Virus record (IMG/VR): IMGVR_UViG_3300037400_005412
Origin: an uncultured virus (IMG/VR IMGVR_UViG_3300037400_005412)
Lineage: Duplodnaviria > Heunggongvirae > Uroviricota > Caudoviricetes
Direction: 5' to 3' (one strand)
Length of the DNA: 64,000 nucleotides
Shown here: positions 1-56,792 of the stretch, in pieces
Layout: each line of letters begins with the position of its first letter
Numbering within the stretch: position 1 is the first letter of the stretch
Made by a program: the position numbers and the translations under genes
The notes under the pieces: model-generated
What the model was told of the DNA's origin: nothing
What the model saw: the letters and a program-made list of their open reading frames with translations, nothing else
The model's database searches: none

Positions 1-3000
1 AACTATCATATCCTAATCCACTACCTAAAATATTTAATGTAGAAATTGAAGTATTACCTTCTCCTTCAAACATACCTTGTAAATATAAGCCAGGTTCAGC
101 GACTAAATCTCCTTCAAGATTTAATTCTGGATAATGATATTCAGTAATTAAATTCTTTAATAAACGAGCTTCTGTTAATTTTAATGAAGTTAAACCAGAA
201 GGTAAGTATAAAGTATTTAACGCAACACCTTCAGCAAATTTAATTTCACTGTAATTTGAACCAGTAGCACGGAAATTTTCAAGTTTTTCACAACTTGTTA
301 AATCAAGAACAGCAGAACCTTGACTTAATTGAACATTACTTATATTCATATATTTAAGTAATGGTAAACCACCAGTAATTGAATCTTTAGAAGCACCAAA
401 ACTTGGATTATTTACATTATTATTAGCATAGTTAATTTTTTGTCCTGGATGTTCAGGATCATCCATTTGTCCATCATAACCAAATTTTAAGCTAGTTAAT
501 TTAGCAGCAGAACCTTCAATAGAAAATTCTTGCCAATATAATTTACTCATATCGCCTAAATCACTCATATGGTTAACACCATAAATATAAAGCAATTGTT
601 CTGGATAATTTTGGCTAGTACGTACACCACTTTCAATAGCAGAAACTTCAAATTTTAATGGATGAATGCCATCATATTTCTATGAAGGATATGCCTCATT
701 ATCGTCTCCAAGAGTAACATAAGAAGAATGAGTTGGAGTTAATGTTAACCAATATTCAGCATCAAATAAATGACGTTTTGAACCATCAGCTAAATAATAA
801 CTAGTATCTGGATCATTAATATTTTCAACCCATTTATCAGAAGTCTTTGAAGCATTATTAGCGGCAACACGCCCTCTAATACGGTTAAATCCACCTCTTT
901 GATAGTTACCTTGATTTAACCAGCTATCAATGTACTCAATACGATTTGTTAAGAATTGACGTCTAGCTAAAGATCTATTGCCTTGAAGCATATAGAAATA
1001 AGTACCATCATCAACAGCAAAGTTACCTTGATCATCGCTAGATAAATGACCAATTAATCCATTTTCTAATGCTTGCTAATTGCTGCCATTAGTAATAGTA
1101 ATATATTTATAATATTCATCTAAATTTTGAGCAACGATTGGGCGCTTACCTCTCATTACAATTTGTCCGCAAATATTTGGATCGGTATTATACCAACCTT
1201 CAATAAAATCAACAGACTATAATGGAGGATTTTGTAAAGCAGGCCAAACTACTCCGCTAGTGACACCTTTTAAGTGTTTGTACTTAGAAATAATAGCAGA
1301 ACTCTTAAAATATCTATAGAAGTTATTCCAAAGAACGCTATCAGAAGTTGAATAGTTACCGTCTTCAGTAGCATCAACGTTATATTCAAATGAAGGAATA
1401 CCAGTATTGTTAACACCTAATTGAGTATCAATATCATAGAAAATAGGATACCAAATGTATTCGCCACCCTATTCTTGTGGACCCCAAGAAGCCATCATAC
1501 AGTTTTTACCACGAGAGTCATAGCATTCAAATACTTCAGTCATAATAAAGTAAGTTGCCATATACTCAAGGTCAAAATGCTTCTCTAATTCATTAATAAA
1601 CTTATCGCCACGATATTCTTTTGTATCATACTTATATTCTTTGCCTTTGTAAGTAACAGTTATTCCTACCCAATAATTAGTTGGATTAGCAGTAAATTCT
1701 TCTTCTGTTAAATTATCTATTTTAACAGTTGCTTCCCCATTCTATTGAGTACCATCATAAGTATAATAAATTTCATTAGGATCAAATGTATCAGTAGCTT
1801 TACATTGTCTTACAAGTCTATCAACTTTCTTAGTAGCTAATTCTTCATCAATATAATTATTTAATTGATAATAAATTATACTATCATTAAATTCAGGATC
1901 ATTAGCACAGGAAACGTACTCATTATTAATTTTAACATAAAAATTATTTCTATTAGTAGTATTAAATACATGTTCTTCATCAGCAACATGAGCGTCAACG
2001 TAAAAAGAAATATTATTGCTATCAGTTTTTATTTCATAATAAGTTATATTAGGATCCCAACTTAATCCAGTATCCTTTATATATTCATTATTTTGAGAAA
2101 TATAAAAAGTATCAGGTTGCCATAGCTATTTTCCAACTACAATAGGAGTATACTCACCTTGACTAATTACATAATCAGTGCATGTGCTCCAAACCCATTG
2201 ACAAGCTTTTTCCCAATTCTTATATTTATCCCACAAAAATTCAGCACGAGCGTCGAAATTCTTTGATTTATCTTTATCATCAAACAATAAATCTACATTA
2301 TTCTTTTCCATATAAGCCTATGCATCTTCACTACTATATTTATCTGATTCTTTTATTGGATCCATAATATAATCCAAAATATCTGCATCAGCATTATAGC
2401 GATATTCAAATGAATCTGCCACTAATGGAGCAGACCCAACAGAATTTACTTTGTAAGTTTTTTGACCATTTTTAATTTCAAAAGCCTTAAATGTTAAATC
2501 TTTGCGCTTATCTGGATCACGGAAAGAACAATATGTTCTATTATTATTTTCCATTTCCCAACATTCTGCAATCTTAGAAATCTTTTTATTCTTTAAGAAT
2601 TTCTATAAAGGAGAAAATCCAGCGGTTTTATCAGGCTTAAATCCATAAGCTTCATCAGAACCTTTATCAAGAAGCATATTATACATACCAATATATTGAT
2701 AGTATACAGAACCATCTTGTAATAATTTTTTATGGAATGTTAATACTCTAAAGCCACCAACAGAAGTTCTATAAGATTCTGTATTAAGAATATCCTTTTC
2801 AGAATATCCAGGAACTTTTAATAACCAATGCCCGGCATACTCTCCAGAAGTCGCATATTTATTAGCAGGATCATCAGGTCTTTGAGATGCCCATAATTCG
2901 GCAGGAGTCTTATTAAAATCTTCTTCGCTATTAATAACAAGTTCTCCATCAATGCCATCGGCTGCTTTCTATTTTCCTTTATGATTTACATAATAATAGG

Positions 3001-6000
3001 TTGCTTTACTATCATAAGTAGTAGCAATCTAAATTTCTGTTTTAGCTGGATCTTCAAATACAAAAGCACCAACATTATTATAATCATCAAGAGGATGTTT
3101 AGAATATCCATTTTTAACTAAATTAGCAAAACCCATATTATAAGTTCCAGAAGATTCCATATAGTCAATCTTCATAGTAAATTTAGTTGTTCCTGCAACA
3201 TAGTTATTCATATACCAATAATCTTGACGAGTCTTTTCTTTTCCAAATTCTACATAAGTAGGATTCTTAATATAATATTTATTACGAAAATAAGTTACTG
3301 TACTGCCTAAACCTTCAACAATATTTTTTCCTTCAGCATCTTCATAATAAGTCTAATTAGCATCAAAATTACCAGAACTTAAAATATAAGGATCTTGTGT
3401 TAAACCAATTTGATCTGCTTCATAATCAGCAGCAAATGGACCACGATTTAAGAAAATATGGACTCTACTCTTTCCATCACTATCATAATCAGTTTTAGTT
3501 TTTAATTTATAATTACGACGTGGATAAAATTCAGAAGAAGTTCCTTGTACAGCCATATTAACTCCAGCAGTTGCTTTCCAAGAAGGGCAATGGTATTTAT
3601 AATAAGTTTTTACAGCTTCAGCTTTCTTCTCTTGGCTGTCTCCATCTTTCCAAAGGCCATCTTCTTTTGCTAATGTCTCTAATTCACCAGAAGTATAAGC
3701 TAATTCCAATGGAACATTAACAAATTCTACTCCAATGTTACGTTTTACTGCTTTTGAATAAGATAACTTCTACTAAGTTTTTGGATATGTTTGTGTAGTA
3801 TCAAAAACTATATAAGGCATTAAAGGAGCATTTGGATGACTCATATTATAATTAAGCATTTCATTATAATCAAAATAATATTCATTAATAACATCATTAG
3901 ATTTTGCTAATTTATTTTGGTCATAAATATCTACATTTTCGAAGTCAGCAGCATAATTCATAACGATATCATTTACATTAAGAGCAGTATTATAGACACG
4001 AATTTTATATAAATCAATGTCGCAAGCGTCACTATTAAATTCAATAGAATCTGCTTCAATAGAAAAAGCTCCAGCTGTATTTCTAATAACACTAGTTAAT
4101 GAACCATTAATATATATCATAATAATTTTTTGAGCATTTGTCTATCCATGCTAATAGACAATAGATACAGAAACAATTTCATCTTCAACATAAGAAGCAC
4201 TAACAGTATCTCGTCCATTAGAGAAGAACATATCTTGTGGGCCTAAGCACATACCTTTTACTTCAGCAGTATTACCAGTATAATAACCACAAAATACATT
4301 GCTCAAATCAATTTGTTTCTAAATACGATTAAAAGTTAAATCATCATATTCGAGTAATTTAGGAGTTGAACTTCCTTCTTCAACAATAGTAAAAGGAGTC
4401 TCTAATGTTGGGTTAATTTCTTTTAAATACCATGCTAAGAAAGAATCATAGTTAGTATATTTAGTTAAATATGTATGATTTTCTTCATCATAGAATCTAC
4501 TAAATAATTCATCATCATTATTATAACGAGTAATGTTATGAATTAAATTAGAATAATTCTAAATATTTCTAATTTTAAACTATAATTCAATAGTATGAGT
4601 AATTTCTGTATCAGTTCCATTCTCTGCGGCAAAACGCATTTTTCCAATAGGAATTGATAATCTAGCGCCATTACTAATTCTTAAACAAGTTTTATTATCT
4701 GTGCCACGAATCCAACCATTATTATACCAGTTAAAATTTGACAATTTGGCAGCAATTGATTTAGTATCAGATTGTTTATATATTAATGTTTGACGTTTAA
4801 TTTCAGATTCATTATTTGAACGACCACTACCAACGGTATTTAACATATAAATTAAATCGCCAGTCTTTTGAATACCAAAATCCATACGATTAGGGTCTTG
4901 AGATATAGTAATCTCAATATCTCTAGATACCTCGTTATCTCCTTCTCCGCAGGTAATGCTATAACGATTTAATACATTAATTTCTGCATCAGCTATTTCA
5001 AAATAAGAAAATTTAGTATTATCAGTAATAATTTGAGGAGAATTATCTAATTCTTTATTATCTTTTTTGAAATGGACCGTAGCAGAGGCTGGACTATTAG
5101 GATCGAAAACTCTAAAAGGAATTTGAATGATATCATAATTAAAATAATTAGATTGATACTCTCCTAACCAAATTATTGGTTTAAGATTTCCGCTTTCTCT
5201 AATAGCAATTTCAAAATGTAAAGGTGCTACTTCAATGCCCTTTTTCCCATTTACAGATTGGAAAAGTCTAATCCAAACTTTATGACTTCCATGAGATAAA
5301 TTAACTTTATTCCCACCAACTGTTAGAACATTAACAGTGCGGTTTTCTGAATCATTTTCTTTTAAATTTTCTACATAAATAGGCGTATCAGGATCATCAA
5401 AATAGTATTCTACAATTTTATTCATACTACCAACAGCATTACAACGTAAAGTTACAGCATTGGCATCAAAAGTATTCAAATTAGAAAAATTAGAATCAGG
5501 AGTTAATTCTAATTTAGAAGTTGTAAAAATAATATTACGTGAAATACTTCCATCCGCGTTCTACTAACTTGCTGTTAAGGTTAAGCGAGAAGAAGAAGAA
5601 AGTCTAGCAATTTCTCCAAATTCAAATTCACTACGAACTCCGCTTTGGAACTATTCACTACCAGTTTTATAAGTAGTATAATTAATACCATCTTCTGTAT
5701 ATGCTAAAGTATATGTAATAGTAATTATAGAATCAATTTCATTTCCTTTAGCATTTTTCGCTGAAGTAGCTGTAAAATATACTTTAGCAGATTGTCCATT
5801 AATTAAATTGACAGTAGCTAAAGGCTCTACAATTAAATCAATATCTTCAGCTAAAGTTGCGACTCCTCCTCCATTTCCTGCAATTGTCAAACGAGTAGCT
5901 ATTACAGAAGAAGTTAAAGGAGAAGGATTTATTACTCTATAAAAACTTCCTTCTGAGATATTAATAATAATATCATCTTTAACAGGATAAGAATCACCTT

Positions 6001-6268
6001 CGATATCATCTATTGCAAAAGTAATTTCAGTCTCTAATTTTTCATCATCAGTTAAAGACTTATTGGCATAATATATCCCAGAATTCCCAGCTCCGCCAGT
6101 TGTACCTCCTACTGCGGCACGGGCTATTTGATTTCCATCTGAATCAATATAGTCTAAATATATTCTACCAGTATCTGTTGCGAAATAGAGATATCCATCA
6201 TTGAAACCTAGTGCATTAATTTTATCTTCTGTTCCACGCACAGGCACAAATCTTTTATTATTACCCAT
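1..6268 (-). CDS. Giant tail-associated protein with LamG/ConA-like, CotH-kinase-like and leucine-rich-repeat regions (TAG=Gln; 3' end runs off window)
   Basis: ORF fragments ending at 5651, 4580, 3773, 3353, 3029, 2318, 2126 and 680 share one frame and end in TAG. Motifs: IYINGSL...IDLYKIRVYNTALN (LamG-like); QGTSSEFYPRRNYKLK, FTMKIDYMESSG, YIGMYNMLLDKGS, YDSRGKNCMMASWG, WYPIFYDIDTQLGVNNTG (CotH-like); LDLTSCEKLENFRATGS, LNTLYLPSGLTSLKL (LRR-like). RBS AGAAAGGAG upstream. Confidence 0.8.
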
Positions 6269-6395: not shown

Positions 6396-8102
6396 TTAGA
6401 ATTTATCCCATTCTAAATCAATATTAATTCTATTAGAAGTAGTACTATCTTGGCTAATCTTTAAGCTCGTAGAATGCAAATTAAAAATTGATCCTGTTGT
6501 GTCAGTCTCATTACTATCTCTTAATTTAATAGATAAATTTACGCCATTACTACCATCATTATCAGTTGTATTAGCTGCTGCATTTATTACATCATAAGTT
6601 ACTGGAGTAAATTCATCAGTAGTAACGGATGTTATGTGACCATCATTATCAGTCTCTAATGCTTTAATAGCAGTAAAACTAGTTGTCCAGTGTGATTTAT
6701 GATTATCGTCTAGTGTTATCGTACTAGTTGAAATTGGAGCATGGGTAATAGTCGTTATTAAAGTATTATTATTATTCTAATCAATCGCAGAACCTAGAGT
6801 AATATTATTACCAGCTTTTAATTGCAATTTACTAATAATTGTTTGATTCTAATTTTTGATTGCAATACTATTATTAGTCGTATCAAGGACTGCGCTGTAA
6901 GTATATTCAGCAGCACTATCATTACCAGAAGGTATATAGGTCCAAGTTAAATCATTCCCAATAACACCATTAGTTTCTGTGCCTTTGGCAATAAACATAT
7001 CGCCAATACGAGTACCTTTATCTAATTCTACCTTAGTAGCTGTTTCAAAAGTTGCTCCAGTGAAATCAGCACTAGTTAAATTATTTGAAATAATAATATA
7101 TGTATCGCCATTCTTAACATTAGTTGTTGGTAATCCATTTGTATTTGTTGCACCGCTTGAGCTATTACCAACGGTGCCCTTATAGGTCATACCATCTAAG
7201 CCTTTTAATAAATTATCAATTTGTGTTTTACTGTATAAAGGGCTAGTTGAAGCTAAACCGGTACTATTTAAAAGAGCATAAGAACCATCATTTAAAACAA
7301 TACCAATATTATTAAGAGTTGCTGATTTGCTATTACCACCAGAATCAGTCACACCAATAGTTACTGTACCATCGCTAGCACTAGCCTCAACTTTAGCAGT
7401 TCCAGCTAAATTTGTATCAATAGATTTAAGTTTTATTTTTTTTCCAGATTGATCTAAATCTAAAGTTAAAGTATTTAAATCTCCAGACTCTAAAATTAAA
7501 GTAGAATTATGTGCTGCTACTCCATCAGAGTCAGTTAAAGTAACAGTAGCAGTTTTTTTATCATTACTTACAGTTGGAGCACTTAAAGAATAACTATCTC
7601 CAGTAATTTTAATATTTCCATTAGCGTCAACGCTAACATGAGCAGTTCCTTCTCCAGTAAAATGTACGCTATCTGATTTTTCAGTATCGTTACTATCAGT
7701 AGAAGTAACAGTCATTGTTACATCATTGGTAGTAGAACTACTTGCACTTACGTCAATACTTTTGGTTGTAGTATTTGTATCTGGATTAATCTATACCCAT
7801 CCACCATTTTTATTTTTATCAACACCAGTATAAACTGCTAAAACATTATCATCTGTGATATAATAAAAATCATTAATATGAGCATCTTTATTTGTCCAAT
7901 TATTAGCCATAGTTGTTAATTCAGTTAAGGAGCCAATAATTTGAACAGTTTGATTTAATAATTTTCTTTCAACAGTATTTGAACCACTAACAGGTTGACC
8001 AACATATAAACGATTTGTATCTGTAGTTAAATAAAATACGCCATCTTCAACAACAGCTGGCAAATTGGCCTAAAGACCTCTTTTAAATTTTATATTAGCC
8101 AT
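6396..8102 (-). CDS. Tail fibre/spike-like structural protein (TAG=Gln)
   Basis: Starts MANIKFKRGL(TAG)ANLPAVVEDGVFYLTTDTNRLYVG, joins fragments 7791-8063 and 6849-7715 in frame, ends IDLEWDKF-TAA. Thr/Ser/Gly-rich. Confidence 0.75.
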
Positions 8103-8124: not shown

Positions 8125-9084
8125 TTAAGATGTAATTTCTTGCCAAATTAATCTCGAATATATATCTTCAAAAGTATCAGAGATACTAGCAGTAGAATAA
8201 TCTAAATTATTATAATTATTAAGTTGTGATAAATTTCCTACTGTATTATTAAATGTTACTTTTGTAACATATGTATCCATAAAATTACTATTAGCATTTT
8301 CTAAGGCAGTAAGTCTTGGATTTATAGTATTTATAGCATTATTAAAATCTACATTAGTGACATAATTATCTAAATTAATACCATAAGTTCCAATTTTCTC
8401 AAGATTTCCATTAATAAACATATATTCGTCATACATGCTTGAAGTATCTTCAGAACCATTAGGATATAAATATATAGTATTAGTTTCAGTAGCTTCGGCT
8501 AAATCTGAAATAACAGTATAAGTTAAATGATTACTTCCTGAAATTGCATTAGCAATTTTATTATCAATGTTTTGAAAATCAAGTTTTAATTGTGAAACTT
8601 CAGTTTCTAAATTACCAACTGAAGTTGTTAAATCTGGAGGTAGAGATACCCATTTTAAATTATTGTTTTCCTTAACTGGCACCATTCCAGTTGAAGCAGC
8701 ATTAAATCCTTTTAATTCTAATTGCCCATTTACATTATTGAAATTAAATTCATTTTCATCAATAGATACAAAATTACCATTTGCTTCAATAATAGTTTGA
8801 GCAACATCAACCGCAGAGACTGGTATCCATTTTCCCTCTGAATTGGCTACTAAGAAGTCTCCCGCATTAACAGAAGTAATTAAAGTATCGGTTAAATCTG
8901 CTAAACTAATATCAGAGCTAGAACCAACATTACTACTAATTAAACGAGTACCTAAATATAATTTACCTTTGGTCTAATCTTCATTATCATAGATGAAATA
9001 TAATGTATTATCATCTTTTTTAACTAAATTCTAATAAGAAGTCATAGATCCACGCTAAAATTTTACATAATTAGGACTTGCCAT
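8125..9084 (-). CDS. Tail fibre-associated protein (TAG=Gln)
   Basis: ATG at 9084 with RBS; MASPNYVKF(TAG)RGS...NTLYFIYD...GKLYLGTRLI in frame with 8125-8685; N-terminus resembles the neighbouring fibre gene. Confidence 0.7.
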
Positions 9085-9151: not shown

Positions 9152-10975
9152 TTATTGACCAGCTTCTTTTGGATCTATCATTGTTATATTGCGCGCTTCT
9201 CCAAATAAAAGTGTTTTATCTATTGTATTTTCTAATTTTATTGTATTATAAATATATTCAATAGATCTCACTGTTTCATAATAATTATCTTCTGGAACTG
9301 TTTCTATTGATAATTGGTTATCACTATATTCAGGATCGCTCCATAACATTCGAGGCTTATGATATATATACCCAAAAGCTTTTGGATCACTTAATATCCA
9401 ATCAGATTGAAGACCAATAGCATTATTATCATTTTGGTCAGCAGTATATACTGGAATTATATAACCTGTTTGATAATCATATGGTTTTAATTGATTAATT
9501 TGCTCATTAGTTAAAATTTTATTATCTTTATTAACAATACAATTAATTCCATCTCCAGTATTTAGATAATTTTGAGCAATTTCTTCAGTAGTATATCCTA
9601 ATAATCTCCATCCTTGCCCATGAGATAAAAATCTTAATTCAGAAATATAAGATTTTAATTCATCAATAGCCCAAGCCATTGAAATATTATCTTCTGGTGT
9701 TAGATTATTATATGGCATTATGCCATCATGATTAAATAAAAAATTATTAGTATAAGGTCGCTCATAGTTTTTATCTTTAGTACCTCTACCATATAAAATA
9801 TCATATAAATCAGAAATAGTATTTCCTATAATAGGTAATTGAATCGAAATCTATTTAGAATTATTTTTTTCAGAAAAGGATAAACTTTTATCGTTTTTAA
9901 TTTTCTAAGTTTTTATATAATATATTTTTGCTGTATCAAAATTATCAGACTAATCGAATATTAATGTATAATTAGGATTTAAAATATTTTTTTCAATAAT
10001 ACTAGGGGACTGCCCTTCTCCATTATAGATATAATATATATTATCCTCAAAATTACTATCTTCATTAAGAGTTATTTTATAATATTTATCTCTAACTGTT
10101 TGCTAATAATAAATTTGATTTTCATCAAACTATTCTGCTTTTTGTAATTTTGCATATTCAGGATTTTCGATAAATTCTTCAATAATATTTGGAATATCTT
10201 CATCATTTTTCAATAAATAATAATACTAATTTTTAATATATGTATTTGGAGTAAGAATAATTTTAGTATAAATATGGTCTGGATATGTTTTTTCCCCTAC
10301 ATGATATTCAATAATATCAATAAGATTTTTACGTCCTTCTGTTTCATCTCTATGAGTATACTTCGGATCAAAACCTTCCTAATTCAAATAAGGATATTGA
10401 ATAATATTTGTATCAGTTATATTACCAGACTCTATATTTATATTTTCCAAATCGACATCTTTTTGATTATTTAAATCAATGCCCCACATCTCTGGGACAT
10501 GGTAATTATAGATAATATCAGAGCTTTCATATGCATCCATATGAGGAGCGTTTTCTCCAGGAGCATCTGGAGTAATTGTTAAAGATGGAGGAGTGGCCTT
10601 TAAATGCCCAACAAGAATATACTTTTCTTTATTATCAGAATAAATTTTCATCCAAATAGTAAGATGATAGTTTTCATGATAATTTTCTAAATCCTGAGCG
10701 CAATTATCTTTAAATATATTATTTTCAGTATATGATGTAATATTTTTGTCATCTACTAAAAAATCATACTAGTTATAAAATTTTGAGTCTTCTATATTAT
10801 ATCCATAATGTATTAGAATATATCTATTAATAAAAACGCCATCTCCTTGGATGGCATTATTTTCATCTTTATCCTACGTTAAAGCTTTTTCCATGGCTGT
10901 TCTACTAGGATAGATTCTATCGAAAATTAAAGAAATTCTCTAATCATTTTTTATATTTCCATAAAAAGATCCCAT
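9152..10975 (-). CDS. Hypothetical tail/baseplate protein (TAG=Gln)
   Basis: MGSFYGNIKND start with GGAGG RBS; fragments 10379-10651 and 9152-9718 share its frame. Confidence 0.7.
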
Positions 10976-44375: not shown

Positions 44376-44401
44376 TTTAAAATCTCCTTTATCTCATAAC
44401 A

Positions 44402-44440: not shown

Positions 44441-44470
44441 GTTTAAATATATATTAAATTAAATTACCAA

Positions 44471-45661: not shown

Positions 45662-45682
45662 CTTTCTTCTTCTCCTTTCTTA

Positions 45683-46489
45683 TTATTGAATACGCATAAT
45701 CTTTACGCCGGGTTGATGATCAGGCATTGTATAAACTTTAACAACTTGCCATACCATACCAGTAGCAGGCTTGGTAGTTTTCTTCTCAAGGATACCTTTT
45801 GCGCCAGGAACTAAAAAGTCCTTAAGAGCAACAGACTCATCCTTAATCATATTAGTGGTAATAATGTCACCAACATTAGTCTTAATAAGACGTGGAACCA
45901 TTGTAGTGCCTTCTGGCATCATAGCTTCTTTATAAAGAGATTCAATATGGAATGGATCCTCATTATAATGGATATCATACATGTCAGGAGCAGCAGTTAC
46001 ATCATCTACAGGGAATGACTTTGCATTATCTCCTTCACCAAAAGTAACTTTACCATTAGAAAAAGTAATAGAACCATCTTTAGCATCGACACCATTACCA
46101 TTGTAGTAACGAGACTGCTTATCCCAAACAGTATCAGGATTACCATTTACATCAGAACCAAATGGACTATAAACACGAGCTTGATAATTATCCTTAATCA
46201 TAGCAAACTCTGCATCTACTTGTCCATCACGATAAAGTTTAATTTCATTCCAAACGAGCATCCACTCGCCAGGACCGTCAAAATCAACAACACCATCAGC
46301 ATAATTATATTTTGCGAATTGACCATTTTCTAAGACATTAATATCAGCCTTAGCAGGGAGTTGAGCATAAACTTCTTTAGTTGCTTGTGCGGAAAGATGA
46401 TTTGGCTCAACCTGGCCATAGCCATAGCCGTTCTTTACAATAAAACCAGCTTGACTTGTAATATTCTTTTTTAAGAAATCACTAAGCAT
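45683..46489 (-). CDS. Putative capsid decoration/auxiliary head protein
   Basis: Intact 268-aa ORF (GYGQVEPNHLSAQ...) between scaffold and capsid genes; no TAG. Confidence 0.65.
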   Translation of the reverse strand: MLSDFLKKNITSQAGFIVKNGYGYGQVEPNHLSAQATKEVYAQLPAKADINVLENGQFAKYNYADGVVDFDGPGEWMLVWNEIKLYRDGQVDAEFAMIKDNYQARVYSPFGSDVNGNPDTVWDKQSRYYNGNGVDAKDGSITFSNGKVTFGEGDNAKSFPVDDVTAAPDMYDIHYNEDPFHIESLYKEAMMPEGTTMVPRLIKTNVGDIITTNMIKDESVALKDFLVPGAKGILEKKTTKPATGMVWQVVKVYTMPDHQPGVKIMRIQ

Positions 46490-46508
46490 TTTCTAATATC
46501 CTCCTCAA

Positions 46509-48128
46509 TTAAAGATTCTTTTCTTCTTGGATTTCAAATGCGCGCTTCATCCAGGCAGGAGCATCTGCAAATTTGTCTTCAACACTTTCGATATTGAAGG
46601 TAGTAACTTGCGCTTCTTCTTTCTCTTCAGCTAAATTAAAATTAACTTTATTACGCACGCAAAATACAGAAAGTTCTTTTTCTATATCATCATAAGAATA
46701 CTTGTCAATATTATCCTTGTATTCTTTCTTTACATCATCAGAAAGCATAAAGAAAGTTTCAGAAAGTAACTTTTCTTTCTTCTCTCTGTCAATGTCATTT
46801 TTAAAACTAACAAGGGTATCTCTTTCAGCTGTAATAGCTTCAAGTGATTTTTGTAATTCTTGCATCTAATTTTCTAATGTAGAATATTTAACTAATAATT
46901 CTTGATATTCAACAATATCATCTAAATTATATTCTACAGGATTTGATTCACCATTATTGCTTGCTGGCTCTACGACAGCAGGAGCAGGATCTTCAACCAC
47001 AGCAGTTACCTCAACGGCAGGGGCAGGCTCTTCAACAGCGGCAGGAGTCTCTTCAACAACTGGAGCTGGTTCCTCTACCACAGGCTGCTCTACTACGGCA
47101 TTATCTTCTGGCTTCTCTACTTTGCTTTCCATAAACTTTGCCTCATATGCTTTTACATCATCAAAAGCAAATTGAGCTGGGGAACCAGCAGGCTTAAAAT
47201 CTAAGGAAACTTTTACAAGAGAATCTGCTGGCTTAAAGCCATCAGTTTCAGTAAGAGAGAAATCTAAGCGATAATAAGTGAGGTCTTTACGATCTTGAAG
47301 AATGGCGAACTTTTGGGTTCCTTCTTCATAGATACCTTCAATCATATAAGTTAAATCGCCAGAACCGGCTGGACGATGTTCCCACATATAGTCATAAATG
47401 GCATCCCAAAGACGGCCACCAATTTCAACAGCATAAGTATTAAACACTGGTGTTCCTCCTTCATTACTTAAAATTTCTTGCATTTTTTCCATTAAGGAAT
47501 ATAGCTTAACTTTAAAATCATCTTCAAAAGAAAACTATACTTTTGTAATAGATGCCCCCTCAAAACAAGGTTCAACTTCTTCTCCTAAAATACAAAGTTT
47601 AGACATTATTGCTTCATTAATAATAAAAAACTAAGGCTTTCCATTATTATCTTTTGTCCAATAGGCATCAATTAATTTATCATCAAGTTCCATAGACTAA
47701 TTATTTCCTTCATCTATGATTCTCTATGATTCTGGATACTAGCCTGTCCAAATATAACCTTCAGTCATCATATATTCATGAGGAACCCCATCATCTTCAA
47801 ACCACTAAAACCATACTTTAGCATCTGTTGGTACAAAGCCATATGGGCGAGTTGTATCTTTAATTTTAAATTGACCATTTGAAATATCAATTGTTCTATT
47901 ATGTTCCTCAAAATCGCCTGTATTTTCATTATAAAAACCAACAATAGGACAACCTGGAATACTTGGAGCAATCTTTTTTGCTGTCTCTTTTGTAATAATA
48001 CTTCTATTACGATTAGGAGTATCTCCTACATAGCAAATTTTTATCTAACATTTTGAAATAAGAGGATTAACAGGATTCATTTCAACTATCTCTATTGGCA
48101 TATCCTCCATATTGATACTCATATGCAT
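46509..48128 (-). CDS. Prohead protease / scaffold fusion (TAG=Gln)
   Basis: MHMSINMED...ISKC(TAG)IKICYVG..NRNRSIITKE...LCILGEEVEPCFEGASI, then acidic PAVEE repeats and coiled coil; joins 46866-47492 and 46509-46865. Confidence 0.75.
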
Positions 48129-48146
48129 CTCTTACTAATCCTCCTT

Positions 48147-49814
48147 TCAAGATTGAGATTCTAAATTTTTAATTGTTTTTTCTGATTTTTCACTATCAGG
48201 TTTTTCTGGTCTACCACCAGTACTTTCTGATGTATTCTAAGAATTTGAATTCTTTCTTTGACTTCTTGTGTCCAAAATAGTTTGTCCATTCATTGTTGAA
48301 CTTAACAATGGAGGAATCATAATGCTTGGTAAATCAAGAATTTCATTTTCAAAGTAAGCAAGATTAAGAACAGAACTTTGTGAATGTCCAAGAGCAATCA
48401 TTGGCAAAAACTTTGATTGACCATTGGCGGTTAATTCACGATATGTTTTAGCTAGATCTTTATAGTTATACTATGTAGTTTCTAGCATTACAAATCTAAA
48501 ATTAAATTTCTTACTCTAATTCTTTTTCTCTATTATTTTATCAAAAAATATTGAAAATTGCAAGAGTAAATTGCGCACAGTTGACTCATCATCTAAAATT
48601 GATTTTTCTAATGCTAATTGTCCATCGGCATTAAAAATATTGCGCGATAAGCCTAAAGCATTATAAACACTACGTTCTACTTTCTCTAAATCATCCTAAG
48701 ATGTTGTAGTATTTTTATCACTAATATCAATTGCTTCAACATCAGCAAATGTTGTAATAACATCAACACCAATGGCACGACTTAACATAGCGACAATAGT
48801 ATTATGAATATCCCTTGCTTCATCTACATCAAAAATTAAATCGCCATTTTTATCCATAGGCAATTTCTAAACTAATATTTTTAATAATTTCTACATTTGC
48901 TTTTTGCGGTCTAATTCTTGCGCCGCATCTAAATCTAATATAGCAGGTAGTGCGTTAAAAAATACTGGAATATCGCTACCATTTAAATTAAATTTAATTG
49001 TACTACCAGGATTAAGTAAATACCATCCAGTTCTACGTTTTATATATCCAGGTCCATATGTTGCAAAATTATCTTCTGAAATTAATTTTCCTTGTTTATA
49101 TAAAGCATATCCTTTAGCAAATTCTTCTGGAAATAGTTTTAATACTTTTAACCTATAGTTTAAATCACTAAATTGTTCATCAAAAAAAGCCATATTAAAT
49201 TCTATAGCAGGACTTCCTCCAACTGAATATATTGAACGACAATACTCATATGGAAGTTCTTGTAATTGAGCGCCTTTTGAACTGTCTATAATATATCCAT
49301 AATAAGCACCATACTTAATTACTTTTAAAGCAATATCTCCGCACATTTTTTTAATATATGTGCCATCAAGATAAGTAAGTAATTTAGTATATTCCTCAAT
49401 AACTTTTTCTGATTTAGCTGATTCTTTCACATTCTCTGGATATATATACCAATCATATCTATAAAGATAAGCAAAATAATTACAGACGGATTGATATATA
49501 CCACTTGCAGCATAAAAGAAATCTGAAATCAATTTTATTCTTTTATAGTCTCTTTTAACTATGGCATCCATGATTTCTTTTTTGTTACAGTAAGGAACAC
49601 GAGGTAATTTTAACGTTCCCAAATCAAGAATTGCATCTTCTAGCTATTTTACTCCAACTTTGATCTTCCCATATTCAGTGACCATTTGCTCTGGTATTTC
49701 ATCTGGTTTAGCATACCCAAAATCAAACAAATCAAAGCCTTTAGCGTGAATAGCCTATTGTCTTTGCTCTGTTGGATGTATTGGACTTTCAGACTATTTT
49801 TTTTGTTCATCCAA
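48147..49814 (-). CDS. Portal protein (TAG=Gln)
   Basis: TTG start with AGGAGG RBS, in frame with 48891-49622; C-terminal GGRPEKPDSEKSEKTIKNLES; between terminase and protease. Confidence 0.8.
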
Positions 49815-49827
49815 AGTTATGTCCTCC

Positions 49828-50184
49828 TTAATAACCAGCTTTTTTCATTATATAGTCATAACTAATTAAATTTTCTTCAGTATATGGTATTTCTATTAGT
49901 TTAAAACCCTATAATGCACAGAAACGTCTTTTCTTATTATCATTATATTGCTATTGATAAAATCCTTTTTTTCCACCAAATTTAGAACTTGGTTCATAAT
50001 GTTGTCTTCCCTAATATTCAATAATGAAATCAATTTTACCATCATCATCAAATACTACAAAATCAAATCGGAGAGGTCTACCATTTGAGCTGCGCAAATC
50101 AGGAAAGATATATTCTTCTTCGTAATTTAATCCCGCTTCTTCCAAGATTTCTTCTATTGCTATTTCTCCTCTTGAGCTTCTCAT
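49828..50184 (-). CDS. PD-(D/E)XK / Vsr-like small endonuclease (TAG=Gln)
   Basis: SRGEIAIEEIL...LRFDFVV...IIEY(TAG)GRQHY...NDNKKRRFC..LIEIPY. Confidence 0.8.
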
Positions 50185-50198
50185 TTTTTCACCTTCCT

Positions 50199-53100
50199 TT
50201 AAGACATAAACATCATATCAGAGACTTTAAATTTTTTCTTTTTCTTTTTATTATCTTCTTCAAATTTTATATATAATAATCCATATTCAGCAGCAGAAAA
50301 TTTATCTTTTTTAATTGACTTATTAGCTTGTTTTAAAATAATATTAATACCTTCATTTTCTTCTCTAAGATTTGACATTTCTTCCTTTAATATGGAAGTT
50401 AAAGTAAAAGGTTTTAAATATTCTGCCCTTTTTTCAGGACTCATTTTTTGCCCTGCTTTAGTTCCCAATAATTTTGCTTTAGCAACTCTTTCATCAATTA
50501 ATAATTTAATTTTACCAGCATTAAGCATTGTCTGAAAATTAGCATGGGCTTCTGTATTTACAGGGGCATTTGCTTTCATCAAATACATAGCATCTTCTTC
50601 TGTATCTGGTGTTCTATATTTTTTATATTCTTCTACAGCATCATCTTGTGTACCGCCATGAACTCCAAAATCAGGAAAATCATCTCCAGTAACTGGATCA
50701 TGCTAAGACTTTACCATATAATCAACTAATCCTATGCCTACAATATGTTCCATATAATTCGCTACATTATACGCGTTCTCTTATGAACTGCTCTATGTCG
50801 CCATAGATGTTCAGACTATATCTTCACCCATCTCTCCATGGGGCTTTCCACTTCGAGCATCAATCGCTTATGCCCTACTCCTAAATAGGATAGTCGTTGA
50901 ACTTTTAATTAAAATCAATACTTTCAGTTAAATATTTCCAATTTTGTTTTCTTTTTATAGCGCCAACAGTATCTTCGCAAATATTAAATTTATTAGCAAT
51001 TTGTTTTTGAGTATATTGTTTAGATAATAACATTTGAATAATTTCTAAAACATTTTCTTCGGTCAAATGAGTAGCATTATTATAACTACCTTTTTGATTT
51101 TTAAGTCCAATCTTATAAGCATGTTTATTATTTTCACTACTTGTACACCATTCTAAATTTGATAAATTATTATTTAACTTATTCCCATCTATATGATTTA
51201 CTTGTAAATTTTCCATATTTTTAACTGGATTAAAATTTTCCAAAATTAATCTATGAACAGAATAACGATGTCTTTTTCCATCATCTGACATCATCTAGAC
51301 TTTTGCGTAACCATCTTTGTCTAACTACCAACTTAATATTTTATTACTTCTTGCGCTATAAATAGAACCGTCTTCTCTAGCATAATAATCATAAATCAAA
51401 TTATATTTACAATGTGTAATTTTAACTGTATTCATATTTAGCCTCCTATAAAAGCTTTAAAATTTTAATTACTTAGCTGCTGATTGTCTTCTACTTTAGA
51501 AGATTTCCCAGCAATTCAAAAAGTTTTAAATGAGCTAGTATTATTAACCCATTGGCGTCTATTACAATACGTCTTGCTTTATATTTATAATATAGTCTTT
51601 TTAATTTAATAGCCTAATCTTCAAAATGAGCATCACTCATTGTATAAATATTTACTAATGATTTAATAGCTGGACCAACGCTCTATGGAGTAACTTTCCA
51701 TACGCAAATAACGCTATCACATCCTTTTCTACCTACATCAACAGAAAGAATATAATAACTTTTTAAAGATGCTCTACCAGAATGTTCATACTCTGGCTAA
51801 TTAATAACTCTATGTTTATCAAAAGTCTCTCCATCAAAGAAAGCATTTTCAGTTGTTCCAGACCATTTACTTTCATACTCACGATCAAAAGATGCTTCAT
51901 TATATGTACCATCTCGCTATAAATCCTATAAAAATGTTCTATCTAACAATTTCATTAAAACAGGGACGCGCCAAGTGCCTCCCATAATAAAAGCCTTTTC
52001 AGGTTCTGTGACCATCCAGACTAAAAGCTATATCAATTTGTCATATGCAAAGGTGCCTTTCCAACCTGCTGTTGTGACGTATATCTAGCTTTTATTCAAT
52101 GTTTCTTCTGGATGTGACTAGCCATCCATTGCTAATCTAGAAACATTCATTGTAGGAATGATAACTTCTGAAAGAATTTGACCATCAACGCCAACACATT
52201 CTTCTATTAGCCCGCCATGGCGACGTTTACCACGAGATTTTTCTGTCGCCGCTATATTATCAAAATAAGAACCATTTTTAAACATAAAAATACAATAGTC
52301 TTTACTAATTCTAGTTTTCCCAGGTCGTCTATCTAATTCTTTATTTAAGGCTGGAACAAGGACGCATAATTCATCAACTTTTTCTTTAATAATGCCAGCT
52401 GATTGCTCTTTACCTCCAGATGTAACGAATAACTTTGCTCGTGGATATAAAATGCATCTTATCATTAAAACAAGAACTGATAAGAATGATTTAGAATATG
52501 CCAATTATCTTCTATATAAGACGCTACTCTTATATACGTTCTCTTATGAACTGCTCTATATTTCTATAGAAGTTGAGACTATATCTTCATCCTTAATAAA
52601 TATAAGGAGTCTACCTTTTCCACTATCAAACACTTATAGTGTACTCTCTTATGAGATAGTCGTTGAACTTTTTTTATTATTAAAAGTTTTTCTTTCCTAT
52701 TTTCCTAAAGAAGTTGTTATATCCTAAGTAAGATATTTCCAAGTTTCTTTACGTCGAATTCTAGCTACAAAAGTTTTAGCATTTGTATTTGTTATTTCAG
52801 CAATTTCTTTATCAGTATATAAATTTGTTTTTAATAATTCAATGACTTTTAAAGCATCCTATTCGGTATAATGATGTAAATTGCTTTTGTTCCCTTCGAT
52901 ATTTTTAGCAGAAGCTAAATTATTTTTCCAAGCATGAATGATATTTTCTTTTGCTGTTACCCATTCAAGATTATTTAAATTATTATTTTGTTTATTTCCA
53001 TCTTTATGATTAACCTATAAATTATCCATATTTGGAACTGGATTAAATGCCATCATTTTAATTCTATGAAATGGTAGATATGTTGTTCCTCCACCTACTT

Positions 53101-53620
53101 TCATTAATGACACCATAATATATCCATCTTTAGCCTATATTTTACTTAAAATATTTCCAGTATTTTTATTGATTATTTCATCCTAGTCTGTAATTACATA
53201 ACAAGACTTTACAGAAGGATAAAGCTCACAAATTTGCTTTTCCATAATTATATCTCCTTTTAATAATAAAACTTAGCTGCTGATTGCCCTCGCCTTGACG
53301 TTAGGGGGTTCCAGCAATTAAATAGATTCTTTAATAATGTTACCATTATTACCCGCCCATATTTAACGGGGAAATACCATATATACATATTTATAACGCA
53401 TAGCCACGCGCAAAAAAACTCGCTAATAAAAGAAAAATTTTAATCCATCATCTGGTATTTTTCCATCCATTCCAGTCTGTAAAAAATCTATAAACATATC
53501 TGGATATTCTCGCCAATAACTGACATATTGTCTAATAACTGGTTTTAATGGTTCTATACGCTCTTCTGAAATTCCAATTTTCTTTTTAGAAGTTAAATCT
53601 AATAAATCTTTTAGTGCCAT
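50199..53620 (-). CDS. terL: Terminase large subunit, spliced: exons 53620-53366, 52501-51547, 50740-50199 (TAG=Gln)
   Basis: Spliced product FFY(TAG)RVFLR...VFPR/AYSKSF (Walker A region), RGKRRHGGLIEE (Walker B), YVTTAG, LSVDVGRKG, IVIDANG/LGIGLVD, KKDKFSAAEYG. Confidence 0.9.
50741..51546 (-). mobile_element. Group I intron 2 of terL (806 nt) with HNH ORF
   Basis: P1 AAUGGGU:GCUCAUU with U-G at the splice site; AAUUGCUGGGAA, AAUCAGCAGC, GUUCAACGACUA, GAAGAUAUAGUCUG; terminal G; removal restores the frame. Confidence 0.9.
50905..51435 (-). CDS. Intron-encoded HNH homing endonuclease (TAG=Gln)
   Basis: MNTVKIT...DKDGYAKV(TAG)M...VHRLILENF...LQVNHIDGNKLNNNLSNLEWCTSSENNKHA plus C-terminal HTH-like segment; GGAGG RBS. 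Confidence 0.9.
52502..53365 (-). mobile_element. Group I intron 1 of terL (864 nt) with HNH ORF
   Basis: P1 CCCGU:GCGGG; P10 AAUAUG:CAUAUU; same core elements as intron 2; terminal G. Confidence 0.9.
52649..53245 (-). CDS. Intron-encoded HNH homing endonuclease (TAG=Gln)
   Basis: MEKQICELY...FHRIKMMAF...NL(TAG)VNHKDGNKQNNNLNNLEWVTAKENIIHA; absent from the ORF track because of TAGs. Confidence 0.9.
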
Positions 53621-54858
53621 TAGATTTCCACCTCATCATTCTCTAATAAAGATTCAAGATATTCTTCGTCATCAGTTGTTTCTTCATCTACCATATTTGA
53701 TAACTAAGCAAAATCTTCATCATTAAGAAAAGCCTTTTCATCTTCATCAAATAGCTCAGATTCAAATGCATCATCATCACCAGCAGCATCAGCATCTTGC
53801 ATTGCTTCTTTTTCTTTATCGGCTTGAATTTGTCTGACTGCATTTTCAATAAGATTACCAAGATTCATTTCTTCTGTAACTAAAGTTCTAGTATATTTCT
53901 AGAAATCTTGAATAGTTCTATCAACTTTATCTTGAGGTCCATCTACATAGTAACGAGGGAAAAATCCATCTCTTTCGCACATAGCAATTAATTCTGATAC
54001 AGAATCAACTACATTGCCCGATTCTGTTTTATTTTGGGCCGCAGTAAATCTACCTGATTTCATAAGCATATCATACATTTTAATCATTTTCTATGCGCCA
54101 TCAACATCGCCCATATCTAATAACTAATCACTTTTTAACGAAGTTTTACAAATCTTCTTTAAAGTATCTATATGACCTGCTGTTTGAATATCATATGATT
54201 CCATCATATCGTTATAAAGTTTTTCTAATTGAACCCATTCTTCTGGTTTATACATTTTGCCCCATTTCATACGGAGCATTAATTTATCCTCATCAGTCAA
54301 TTCATCTGTGATAACACTATCATCAAAACCATTTACTTCATCAAAATAATCTGGTCCATTGTTATAAGTATAATCTGATTGAGGCGGTGGAGGAGGCGGC
54401 TGCAATTCTCCTTCTGGAATAGTGAATGTCGCTTTTTCAATTGCTTCTGTAATTTGCTGAGCATCATAGCCTTGACGCTTCATAGCCTATTCTATTTTAT
54501 TATTTGCTAATTCCTATAAAAACTCTGTATCTTTCCAGCGATATTCTTTCCATTGTTTTAATTTCATTTTAGAAAAATATCTTCCAATAATTGTAGTTCC
54601 AGTTACCTTGCTCTTGTCTTTACCATATGAAGCCAATAACTTATTCCATTCTTCTGGAATATATGGGACATCAACTTCTTGTAAAATCCAAAGATAAGTA
54701 TCTGGATTCCAATTATCAACATGCATTGTTATACATTTTTTACATTGATGAAGATATTTCTATGGATATTTTTCTATATTGTTTGATTGATAAAACTAAT
54801 CAACATTCATAGTTTTATTACATTTCTCACAATACATTTGTTCATTACTTTTCGGCAT
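53620..54858 (-). CDS. Zn-finger protein upstream of terL, candidate terminase small subunit (TAG=Gln)
   Basis: MPKSNEQMYCEKC...QCKKC; joins 54514-54726, 54124-54483, 53899-54087; TAA overlaps terL ATG. Confidence 0.7.
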
Positions 54859-54975
54859 CTCTATACCTCCTTTTATATTTTTTATAAAAGGCTTAATTCA
54901 GCTTTTTTAATTTGCCCAAAAAGTAAACTCCTTTATCTCATACGTGAAAAATTTACCAATTTTATAATAGATTAA

Positions 54976-56061
54976 TCACTTTTGCCCAAGCGCATTTTCC
55001 GCTAAAAGCACATTCTTTTTAGATTTCGCATTACGGCATTCTTTGCATATACTATAAAAGCCATCTTTAGAAGTTTTATTTTTAGAAAAATATTTGTTAT
55101 GTGCTAACTTAATTTGCCCACAACGACTACATTTTTTAAAAACGCCAGGTTCTTCTATTGTAAAATGCCAAGTCAGCCATTCATCTTCAGCAGTATCCGC
55201 AATTAATTTTGGTATTTTATTTCGCCATAATGAAGAAATATATTCCATACTATGTTTAATTCCAAATTCAGTTTGAAGAGCAATTTGAATATCAGTATTA
55301 GGCATTCCATCAATTTTATATTCAACAATTCTTTTATATAAAGGATATTTTTTTAAAGCTTTATCGCATAAATTTTCAAAATCATAAATCATATACCAAG
55401 TGTCATTTTCAAAATTTTCAGAACTATCTTGCTTCAATTTAGAATAATTACATAATATTGCTTCACAAATACTTGGATTTAAAAAAGTAAAACCAGAATA
55501 AGATATTTCACCATTTTTATCTATTGATATTTTGCCATCTAAAGAAACTTTTTGTTTACTATGAATTAATTTGATTGGGACAATAGGTTTACGATAAGCA
55601 TTTTTAATAATATATTGGTCTTTTCGTAATTCTATTAAAGTTCGTTTAATTATATATGCTTCTCGACCAGTCGCAGTTTTTAATTTATCTTCCCAAATTT
55701 TAATGGCTTCTTTTAATTGCTATAAAGGTTGAATTTCTTGAATATCGTTTTTAGTGATTGTTATTTTAGGTTGAAAAATTATATCTTTGTTTTCTGTTAT
55801 TAAATTATATATACCATCTTCACCATTTTCAAATTGAGAGACAAGACCTTCAAAGGAAACTTCTCGTTTATCAACTGTCGCCATTCGATTATCAGTTAGA
55901 ATTTTGCGTTGTTTCTTTTCTTGTTTCTCCATACATAGAACTAGATAATCAGCTAAGATTTCTAAATATCGTTCGCCAGGATCGGGATTATCTTCCAAAA
56001 TCTATTGAACTAATTTATTTCTATCTTCTGGATTTTCAAGAGTATAGTCTAATTTTATCAA
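54976..56061 (-). CDS. Putative transcription factor with HTH (sigma region-4-like) and C-terminal Zn ribbon (TAG=Gln)
   Basis: TTG start with GGAGG RBS; joins 55720-55998 and 54976-55437; IVEYKIDGMPNTDIQIAL...YISSLWRNKI and CSRC...CKEC. Confidence 0.6.
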
Positions 56062-56088
56062 ACTATTACCTCCATTCATTCTATATTT

Positions 56089-56149
56089 ATTCTACCAAAA
56101 AAAATTTTAAATGTCAAATCTTGACAATATAAAAAAAATTTGGTAAAAT
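56089..56149. promoter_or_regulatory. Back-to-back divergent sigma-A promoters
   Basis: Minus TTGACA(56117-56112)-17-TAGAAT; plus TTGACA(56121-56126)-17-TAAAAT; both with TG extension. Confidence 0.8.
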
Positions 56150-56184
56150 ATATTTAGAAAATTTATTAAGGAGATTATAAAAAT

Positions 56185-56439
56185 ATGCAACTTATTAATG
56201 AAAATACAAGTAGAAAAATTGATAGTTTAGGGCGTATTAGTATTCCAAAAGGTATGCGCGATAGGATGGGGATGCCGCAGGACACTGAATTAAATTTTTA
56301 TACTTTGATTACTGATAAAGGAGAATAGATGATTTGTTTGGCGCCGACCACTTTTAGAAGAGATAGATTTTATGTAGCGGCTGAAGTGCTTGATGAACTT
56401 GGATTAGATTTGCCAAAGGAGTTAAGAGCAAAGTTATAA
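56185..56439 (+). CDS. AbrB/MazE/SpoVT-family DNA-binding protein (one TAG)
   Basis: SRKIDSLGRISIPKGMRDRMGM motif; AAGGAG RBS; TAG at codon 48. Confidence 0.8.
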
Positions 56440-56444
56440 TAATT

Positions 56445-56792
56445 ATGATTTATACTAGTTATTTCGGTAATAAAAGTAATTTTCCAGAGGATGCCTATGT
56501 AATTGGCATTACTAGATTTGCTCCTATTGGAATATAGGAAAATTGGGATGTGCTTGCGCCTAGTTCTGAATTATTAATGTAGTTTAAAAATAAAGAAATT
56601 GATGAATTTATATTTAAAGTAAAATTTTTAGAGTAGTTAAAATAGGTTGACAAGAATTATATCATTGAATTGCTAAAGCTGGCTGAAAGCCATTGGGATA
56701 ATGTAATTCTATGTTGCTATGAAAAGAAAGGCGATTTTTGTCATCGACATATTGTAGCCGAATGGTTAGATATTGGAATAGAAGAACTATAA
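56445..56792 (+). CDS. DUF488-like protein (TAG=Gln)
   Basis: MIYTSYF...LAPSSELL...ILCCYEKKGDFCHRHIVAEWL; four in-frame TAG. Confidence 0.8.

Follow-up and report, generated by a model that had tools for sequence, protein, structure and literature searches.

TAG as a predicted glutamine codon in the late gene block of an uncultured siphovirus-type phage

Described recoded phages and the window

Reassignment of the TAG stop codon to glutamine in late genes, together with suppressor transfer RNAs (tRNAs), has been described for crAss-like phages, Lak phages and six further clades (Borges et al., bioRxiv 10.1101/2021.08.26.457843), and in crAss-like phages this code (code 15) has been confirmed by metaproteomics (Peters et al. 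2022, PMC9523058). A further case is the phAss-1 group of human gut phages (proposed genus Phassvirus, with members phAss-1, ctckW2 and ct6IQ4; Babkin et al. 2023, PMC10607447); NCBI files phAss-1 under 'Caudoviricetes code 15 clade'. In the part of that account available for comparison, the group is described as having two to three tRNA-Sup(CTA) genes, no dedicated aminoacyl-tRNA synthetase, a very long tape measure protein, more than 80% nucleotide identity among its members, kinship to Enterococcus phage EF1 and a host guessed to be of Clostridia type. Here we describe a 64,000-nucleotide stretch of an uncultured member of the Caudoviricetes (IMG/VR record IMGVR_UViG_3300037400_005412; hereafter the window), in which the genes for virion structure and packaging are interrupted by in-frame TAG codons. 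An earlier note on this DNA had proposed that TAG is reassigned to glutamine across the structural operon, with Lak and crAss-like phages as the comparison. The kind of reassignment is the same as in those phages; the closest known case proved to be the phAss-1 group instead.

As far as the account of Babkin et al. (PMC10607447) extends, the phAss-1 group and the window are alike in their large siphovirus-type organization and in the use of TAG for glutamine in the terminase, portal, tape measure and fibre genes. They differ in the length of the tape measure protein (4149 amino acids in the window versus 3149-3209 in the phAss-1 group), in genome size (182-240 kb for the complete relatives of the window versus 133-138 kb) and in the window's intron-like inserts with homing endonuclease genes. 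The best named matches to the portal protein were an unannotated human-faecal fragment (52% identity), phAss-1 (39%) and Enterococcus phages EF1 and VRE9 (30%). Assignment of the window to Phassvirus was ruled out by this 39% portal identity and by the position of phAss-1 in the portal tree, outside both the clade of the window and its sister group. Phages EF1, VRE9, Brevibacillus Sundance, Bacillus Tsamsa and SPbeta-like phages have a homologous portal (25-30% identity) and the same general structural module; unlike the window, EF1 is not recoded according to the same account (PMC10607447).

The Agate, Sapphire and Jade clades of Borges et al. (10.1101/2021.08.26.457843) resemble the window in combining recoded structural genes with early genes that are readable under the standard code, and are described as having suppressor tRNAs and genomes of 150-210 kb. 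Single clades in that account mix codes 11, 15 and 4, as does the family of the window. These clades were compared by description, on size, habitat and mixed codes as given in the available part of the account, and are possibly among the closest known cases. The crAss-like phages share TAG-to-glutamine recoding of late genes in gut phages; they belong to an unrelated phage order with Bacteroidota hosts and their recoding is peptide-confirmed (PMC9523058), whereas the lineage of the window is known from sequence alone. Recoding of this kind is thus already described, and the present phage is a further case that leaves knowledge of the mechanism unchanged.

In-frame TAG codons and the amino acid they encode

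The window has a guanine-plus-cytosine (GC) content of 30.5%. Reading through TAG raised the number of open reading frames (ORFs) of at least 150 amino acids from 14 (table 11) to 32; nearly all of the long ORFs obtained with TAG open were on the minus strand between positions 2 and 56079, and those of 4149, 2777 and more than 2089 amino acids appeared only under this reading. The earlier note had proposed a comparison of coding density, and stop-to-stop frames of at least 100 codons accounted for 44.7% of the window's length under code 11, a figure that rose to 94.0% when TAG was opened. The corresponding cover was 53.2% with TGA open and 88.5% with TAA open, the latter made up of many short frames. 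For frames of at least 200 codons, cover was 16.7% under code 11, 82.3% with TAG open, 18.9% with TGA open and 31.4% with TAA open. TGA and TAA were rejected as the reassigned codon, as neither yielded long frames when opened.

The 27 minus-strand ORFs, comprising 17,610 codons, contained 347 TAG, 425 CAA and 34 CAG codons and not a single in-frame TAA or TGA. Overall, TAG made up 43% of the glutamine codons of the late block, and CAG was almost replaced. The ORFs ended in TAA (21), TGA (5) or at the window edge (1), in agreement with the earlier description of gene fragments that share one frame, are split by TAG and have their true ends at TAA or TGA. These ends were reached by alignments with homologs, and protein conservation extended up to them. 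Beyond the 27 ORFs, TAG was found in a 118-amino acid ORF (49828-50184), in the first terminase piece and in two plus-strand ORFs (56185-56439 and 56445-56792). These two are the last ORFs to bear TAG, which places the previously given right limit of 56792 about right, and since they are early-strand genes, recoding is not strictly strand-bound.

All four sequence motifs on which the earlier proposal had drawn were located on the minus strand: FFY-TAG-R of the terminase at 53420-53434, L-TAG-VNHKDG of an HNH gene at 52997-53020, LQVNHIDG of its paralog at 51184-51207 with CAA as the glutamine codon, and IEY-TAG-GRQHY of a nuclease at 49996-50022, within the 118-amino acid ORF. The two HNH paralogs of the window therefore carry TAG and CAA, respectively, at the same motif position. 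The in-frame TAG pattern of the late block is confirmed. Annotated under the standard code, this 56-kb block would appear as fragments, and the terminase, portal, capsid and 4149-amino acid tape measure proteins would be missed or cut short.

The amino acid encoded by TAG was examined by translating the genes of the window with X at each TAG and aligning them by tblastn to related DNA. Relatives without in-frame stops in the homologous stretches were taken as standard-code relatives, and seven representative loci were used. At 65 TAG sites these loci supplied 251 residues, among which glutamine accounted for 95 (37.8%), followed by glutamate (28), lysine (26) and arginine (16). The background frequency of glutamine was 3.9%, and its frequency opposite the window's own CAA and CAG codons was 32.9%. 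Glutamine enrichment, the absence of which the earlier note had regarded as refuting the reassignment, was thus present. When each amino acid's substitution pattern in the same alignments was used to score the residues opposite TAG, glutamine had a log-likelihood of -598.6, compared with -740.0 for arginine, -747.4 for lysine and -761.6 for glutamate, and exceeded all others by over 140 units. In the tail half, where four standard-code records covered 57 TAG sites, the 120 residues included glutamine 34 times, lysine 17 times and glutamate 10 times (log-likelihood -314.9 for glutamine versus -326.7 for lysine). A TGA-recoded relative had glutamine at 12 of 37 TAG sites.

Counted per site, where at least two standard-code residues were available, glutamine ranked first among the residues in 33 of 93 cases opposite TAG and in 49 of 144 cases opposite the window's own glutamine codons, and the profile of TAG sites matched that of true glutamine codons. 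Codons opposite TAG were also counted across all 76 loci first fetched (n = 2,615): CAA was found 772 times, TAG 453, GAA 176, CAG 171 and AAA 153, such that TAG, CAA or CAG made up 1,396 of the aligned codons. The nearest relative, L134, had 82% identical codons over 1,707 aligned; of 31 codon pairs involving TAG, 21 were TAG in both phages and 10 paired TAG with CAA or CAG, with exchanges in both directions. Collectively, these alignments indicate that TAG in the late block is to be read as a full sense codon for glutamine.

Relatives, decoding and proposed timing

A search of IMG/VR yielded 75 related loci with portal identities of 27-85%. A relative on a 57-kb metagenome contig (L137), expected to extend into the tRNA region, had a portal 84% identical to that of the window. 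Across the homologous stretches of 76 loci, 56 had TAG as the only in-frame stop (4-70 each), 19 had neither TAG nor TGA, and one had TGA. This last locus (L063, on the 72-kb record G008; portal identity 47%) contained 24 in-frame TGA codons and no TAG, and by its sequence is predicted to use TGA as a sense codon. A tree of the portal protein (67 rows) was built by an IQ-TREE quick search (LG+G4 model, branch support by the Shimodaira-Hasegawa-like approximate likelihood ratio test), leaving out ten loci with a portal match of fewer than 430 residues. The window fell within a clade of 43 rows, all of which were TAG-recoded (support 98). Its sister clade (13 rows) comprised 11 standard-code, one TGA-recoded and one TAG-recoded phage, phAss-1 lay outside both clades, and standard and TAG codes were mixed in the distant outgroup. 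At least five code changes were needed on this tree, and at least three were forced by well-supported branches alone. Through the window, the known cases are joined by a sizeable and varied clade of TAG-recoded large siphoviruses of Bacillota type (43 of 67 portal sequences), distinct from Phassvirus.

Among the standard-code sister phages, 20 of 95 ORFs ended in TAG, which indicates that TAG ends translation in the hosts of this group of phages. Related phages infect Enterococcus, Bacillus, Lactococcus and Staphylococcus, and the titles of the genome bins that contained six related contigs were Clostridia, Clostridiales, Bacillota or Bacilli. On this basis a Bacillota host is the most likely, although this is a guess.

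No tRNA was found in the 64-kb window by ARAGORN or Rfam, Rfam gave no match in the window at its gathering score, and no release-factor domain was detected by Pfam among 36 window ORF products, in keeping with the earlier statement that neither a suppressor tRNA nor a release factor lies in the window. An exact 60-mer from the window end had no match in the viral and metagenome contig collections searched. Four long IMG/VR relatives contained 25-38 tRNA matches each, and a tRNA with a CUA anticodon, tRNA(CUA), was present in all three of those rated 100% complete (1, 1 and 2 genes). These suppressor tRNAs were 70-76 nucleotides (nt) long and thus had no second, spare anticodon arm; they scored 38-57 bits against the Rfam tRNA model and were labelled 'Pyl' by ARAGORN from the anticodon alone. 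Measured from the portal gene, they lay 93, 53 and 60 kb upstream, and their strand was the opposite of that of the late genes. Neither the RF-1 (release factor) domain nor the tRNA-synt_1c domain (catalytic domain of glutaminyl- and glutamyl-tRNA synthetases) was detected in any of the four relatives, whereas release factor 2 is reported for two TAG-recoded Agate phages in the available part of the Borges et al. account (10.1101/2021.08.26.457843). Rfam matches in the tRNA arrays of the relatives were tRNAs only, with no ribozymes.

Some unusual tRNA-like features were seen in these arrays. ARAGORN predicted a tRNA with a four-base anticodon (tgtt) at L109 11124-11195 (G001). Two further stretches, at L109 7127-7280 and L111 3374-3522, matched the Rfam tRNA model; at 149-154 nt they are roughly double the size of a tRNA, and one of them directly adjoins the amber suppressor of G003.

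From 56.8 kb onward the window changed in character: GC content rose to 37-42% and GC skew was reversed. Eleven early ORFs with a clear AGGAG-type ribosome-binding site contained no TAG and ended in TAA (8) or TGA (3), and are thus readable under either code, as the model published for recoded phages predicts (10.1101/2021.08.26.457843). A repeat family, D1 (48 nt, 18 copies), consisted of TTGACA, 17 nt and TATAAT, and a TG often preceded the -10 box. Beyond the array of such promoter-like sites listed in Table 1, similar sites numbered two on the plus strand and five on the minus strand elsewhere in the window. That TAG-free early genes with host-type promoters adjoin a late block dense in TAG is consistent with the published proposal that recoding controls when late genes are expressed.

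In the model that we propose, the host uses the standard code, and the early TAG-free genes would be transcribed from the approximately 20 host-type promoters and be readable at once. A phage tRNA with a CUA anticodon, encoded outside the window on the early-gene strand, would then be made and would be charged by host enzymes. Only thereafter could the TAG-laden late genes, among them those for the sigma-like factor, terminase, portal, tape measure, fibres and homing endonucleases, be translated in full. We assign this model as a whole, with TAG as glutamine in the late block, a standard-code host and late translation gated by tRNA(CUA), a probability of about 0.9. The tape measure gene alone sets a demanding standard for such decoding: with 146 TAG codons, a 10% yield of full-length protein needs approximately 98.4% read-through per codon, and once decoding is active TAG would therefore function as a sense codon in practice.

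Several observations weigh against this model. A tRNA(CUA) of this phage's own was not seen in the 64-kb window; as the window extends only 14 kb upstream of the portal gene, its absence within the window is expected. One relative, G002, rated 78% complete, had 25 tRNAs and lacked both tRNA(CUA) and tRNA-Gln. The suppressor tRNAs of the relatives were nearest to non-suppressor glutamine, leucine, glycine and asparagine tRNAs at 66-71% identity and were not clearly of glutamine type; this nearest-neighbour typing was indecisive, with glutamate tRNAs at 64% among the neighbours for G001 and G003, and the amino-acid assignment therefore rests on the alignments. Within the alignments, only 117 of the 347 TAG sites faced at least one residue from a standard-code homolog. 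The distal genes at 2-6268, 6396-8102 and 8125-9084 had a homolog only in the recoded relative G001, and none was found for 9152-10975. In the distal genes of G001, glutamine and TAG together made up 21 of 91 residues and glutamine led lysine by less than 2 log units, a weak signal that follows from the lack of other homologs. The absence of TAG ends among the late genes is partly a product of how the frames were drawn. Finally, genome bins can include phage contigs by accident, which is why the host assignment is a guess.

Three other explanations of the TAG codons were weighed. TAG might be a sense codon for another amino acid, for example glutamate or leucine, a reading with which the glutamate tRNAs among the nearest sequence neighbours of the G001 and G003 suppressors agree and for which glutamate and lysine, the next commonest residues opposite TAG, could also be cited. 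In standard-code homologs, however, glutamine was ahead of glutamate by 163 log-likelihood units and leucine was outside the best six amino acids. Glutamate occurred opposite 205 of 382 of the window's glutamate sites and opposite 11 of 93 TAG sites, whose profile was that of true glutamine sites, and the 10 TAG replacements in L134 were all CAA or CAG, with no GAA or GAG. A meaning other than glutamine is thus extremely unlikely.

An alternative in which the phage goes without a decoder of its own, glutamine already being the host's reading of TAG or release factor 1 being absent from the host, is likewise highly unlikely. All three complete relatives have a tRNA(CUA), the standard-code sister phages use TAG as an end codon, and the early genes contain no TAG at all, an avoidance for which there would be no need in a host using that code; set against this are the 64 kb without a tRNA, the 25 tRNAs of G002 with none bearing CUA, and the lack of any window gene ending in TAG. 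No bacterium is known to read TAG as glutamine. Damage through prophage decay, misassembly or sequencing error, with genes that are not expressed, would account for the breakage of every large gene under the standard code, but not for 17,610 codons that contain 347 TAG and no in-frame TAA or TGA. The same TAG-only pattern recurred in homologous stretches of 56 related loci, relatives kept TAG positions or exchanged TAG only with glutamine codons, and protein conservation continued up to the TAA and TGA ends, making this explanation close to inconceivable.

Gene content, uneven TAG use and mobile elements

The window covers the late block, with the genes for virion and packaging, of a large phage of siphovirus type, together with the start of its early region (Table 1). 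Among the seven distal genes for tail or fibre proteins, homologs were found in G001, G005 and G008, and PHROG matches were weak at best. At the place of the tape measure gene, standard-code relatives had open frames of 2472-2700 amino acids, with glutamine opposite TAG; glutamine also stood opposite TAG in standard-code relatives for the five head-completion or connector genes. Searched by sequence against the PDB, the capsid and tail proteins had no match. An AlphaFold model of the capsid protein (mean predicted local distance difference test score 66.7) had 324 PDB matches at E<=0.001 by Foldseek, and among the matches listed all were HK97-type capsids or encapsulins. The sigma-like protein had no Pfam sigma domain, no PDB sequence match and nothing credible from Foldseek. 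By VIA-align, its residues 222-306 matched region 4 of sigma-H and SigB (Z 6.6 and 6.1) among many unrelated helical matches, which is not decisive, and we could not confirm the sigma identity given by its PHROG family.

Table 1. Features of the window, with position, strand and the family matches and glutamine-codon counts recorded for each
Feature	Position	Strand	Details
Distal tail/fibre gene	2-6268	-	>2089 amino acids; 21 TAG; runs off window; no Pfam family
Distal tail/fibre gene	6396-8102	-	4 TAG; no Pfam family
Distal tail/fibre gene	8125-9084	-	3 TAG; no Pfam family
Distal tail/fibre gene	9152-10975	-	10 TAG; no Pfam family
Distal tail/fibre gene	11388-13610	-	9 TAG; no Pfam family
Distal tail/fibre gene	13607-21940	-	2777 amino acids; 59 TAG; no Pfam family
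Distal tail/fibre gene	21997-23460	-	5 TAG; no Pfam family
Tape measure protein	23582-36031	-	4149 amino acids; PF10145 PhageMin_Tail, E 5.6e-29; 146 TAG, 136 CAA, 13 CAG
Small gene adjoining tail-tube region	36160-36684	-	2 TAG
Small gene adjoining tail-tube region	36759-38150	-	14 TAG vs 4 CAA
Virion structural protein, probably major tail protein	38219-39295	-	phrog_2729, E 1.6e-48; 0 TAG vs 12 CAA/CAG; 39% GC
LAGLIDADG homing endonuclease gene	39680-40462	-	PF14528, phrog_4645; 5 TAG
Head-completion/connector gene	40481-41203	-	9 TAG
Head-completion/connector gene	41206-41796	-	3 TAG
Head-completion/connector gene	41815-42930	-	3 TAG
Head-completion/connector gene	43213-43797	-	7 TAG
Head-completion/connector gene	43830-44375	-	1 TAG
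Major capsid protein, HK97 fold	44471-45661	-	phrog_4088; 1 TAG vs 12 CAA
Head gene	45683-46489	-	phrog_35301; 0 TAG of 11 glutamine codons
Head gene	46509-48128	-	phrog_3313; 8 TAG
Portal protein	48147-49814	-	555 amino acids; phrog_2739, E 5.6e-83; 9 TAG
Nuclease-like ORF	49828-50184	-	118 amino acids; 3 TAG; DUF2726 at 24.1 bits, just below the 24.7 cut-off
Terminase large subunit, three pieces	53620-53366, 52501-51545, 50741-50202	-	phrog_2
Insert 1 in terminase	53365-52502 (864 bases)	-	HNH gene 52649-53245, 6 TAG, PF13392
Insert 2 in terminase	51544-50742 (803 bases)	-	HNH gene 50905-51435, 2 TAG, PF13392
Protein of phrog_3314 (function not assigned there)	53620-54858	-	412 amino acids; 8 TAG
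Sigma-factor-like protein, first gene of minus-strand block	54976-56079	-	phrog_5767 'sigma factor', E 3.3e-49; C-terminal CxxC...CxxC; 2 TAG
AbrB/MazE-like DNA-binding protein	56185-56439	+	1 TAG
DUF488-N3a ('active subclade') protein	56445-56792	+	4 TAG
Promoter-like sites TTGACA-17-TATAAT	57683-63745, early region to 63773	+	20 sites by regular expression

The reassignment proposed for the structural operon was borne out, and recoding proved uneven across it: the major capsid gene and two other virion genes were nearly free of TAG. TAG made up 0 of 12 glutamine codons in the phrog_2729 gene, 1 of 13 in the capsid gene and 0 of 11 in the gene at 45683-46489, compared with 78-82% in certain others. 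Taken together, the three TAG-poor genes had 1 of 36, versus 346 of 770 elsewhere (Fisher p = 3e-8). Within the clade, the TAG share was 0.02 for the capsid gene (7 TAG versus 426 CAA or CAG, 31 loci), 0.02 for phrog_35301 and 0.10 for phrog_2729, and 0.23-0.48 in the portal, terminase, sigma-like and most other late genes; this count covered TAG-flagged loci up to L062 with at least 60 aligned codons, and the loci are not mutually independent. On a tentative reading, TAG would have been purged across the clade from the highest-copy proteins (capsid, phrog_35301 and likely the tail tube), for which decoding capacity would be limiting.

The sigma-like gene contained TAG in 26 of 26 recoded relatives, a count that carries no signal, as a gene with 14 glutamine codons would be TAG-free only 1.5% of the time at the average share. 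Standing at the head of the late block, this gene needs TAG decoding, and on the same tentative reading late transcription would wait for the suppressor tRNA. It is conceivable, though we hold it doubtful, that the code switch in this lineage is a graded expression filter rather than a plain on/off gate; the same tentative reading takes in a family that flips between TAG, TGA and standard codes over short distances and homing endonuclease genes that cross code boundaries and gain TAG. If true, the lineage would be a natural system in which to study gene-by-gene codon capture. Neither TAG avoidance in capsid genes nor a TAG-bearing sigma-like gene heading the late block was found in the portions of the published accounts compared, and the Borges et al. 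account (10.1101/2021.08.26.457843) mentions neither in the part available; no priority is claimed.

The terminase gene had been described previously as broken by TAG. This was the case, but two inserts of about 0.8 kb bearing HNH genes break it too: tblastn with the uninterrupted 587-codon frame of L023 aligned to three pieces with 84-90% identity. Both inserts matched the Rfam Intron_gpI model below its gathering score, at 52608-52556 (34.5 bits, E 2.3e-6), 53375-53175 (28.7 bits) and 51513-51424 (22 bits). An 87-base stretch in the first insert (52522-52608) was 84-87% identical to Bacillus phages AR9 and PBS1, and megablast of window positions 40000-60000 found no phage record beyond this stretch.

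The LAGLIDADG gene lies between two virion genes and was absent from that place in L023 and seven other relatives examined. A copy in the standard-code loci L057-L059 was 71.7% identical, with CAA at 4 of the 5 TAG positions of the window, while the genes flanking that copy were only 34-55% identical to those of the window. From these comparisons the gene looks like a mobile element that crossed a genetic-code boundary and then gained TAG.

Further features of the early region were noted. The promoter-like array (57683-63773, plus strand) had approximately one site per 300 bases, and most sites head an ORF of 45-122 amino acids without a known family. A unit of about 139 nt occurred three times, at 59483-59604, 61673-61794 and 62825-62946 (plus strand), and consisted of a promoter, a GC-rich stretch of about 60 nt and a second promoter. 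This stretch had no ORF, no ribosome-binding site and no Rfam family, and the units may be small RNAs or regulatory leaders. Between the divergent AbrB-like gene and the promoter array, four copies of the palindromic motif CCTTTGTTAAAAATTTAACAAAC were found at 57373-57616 and 58030-58070; these look like operator sites.

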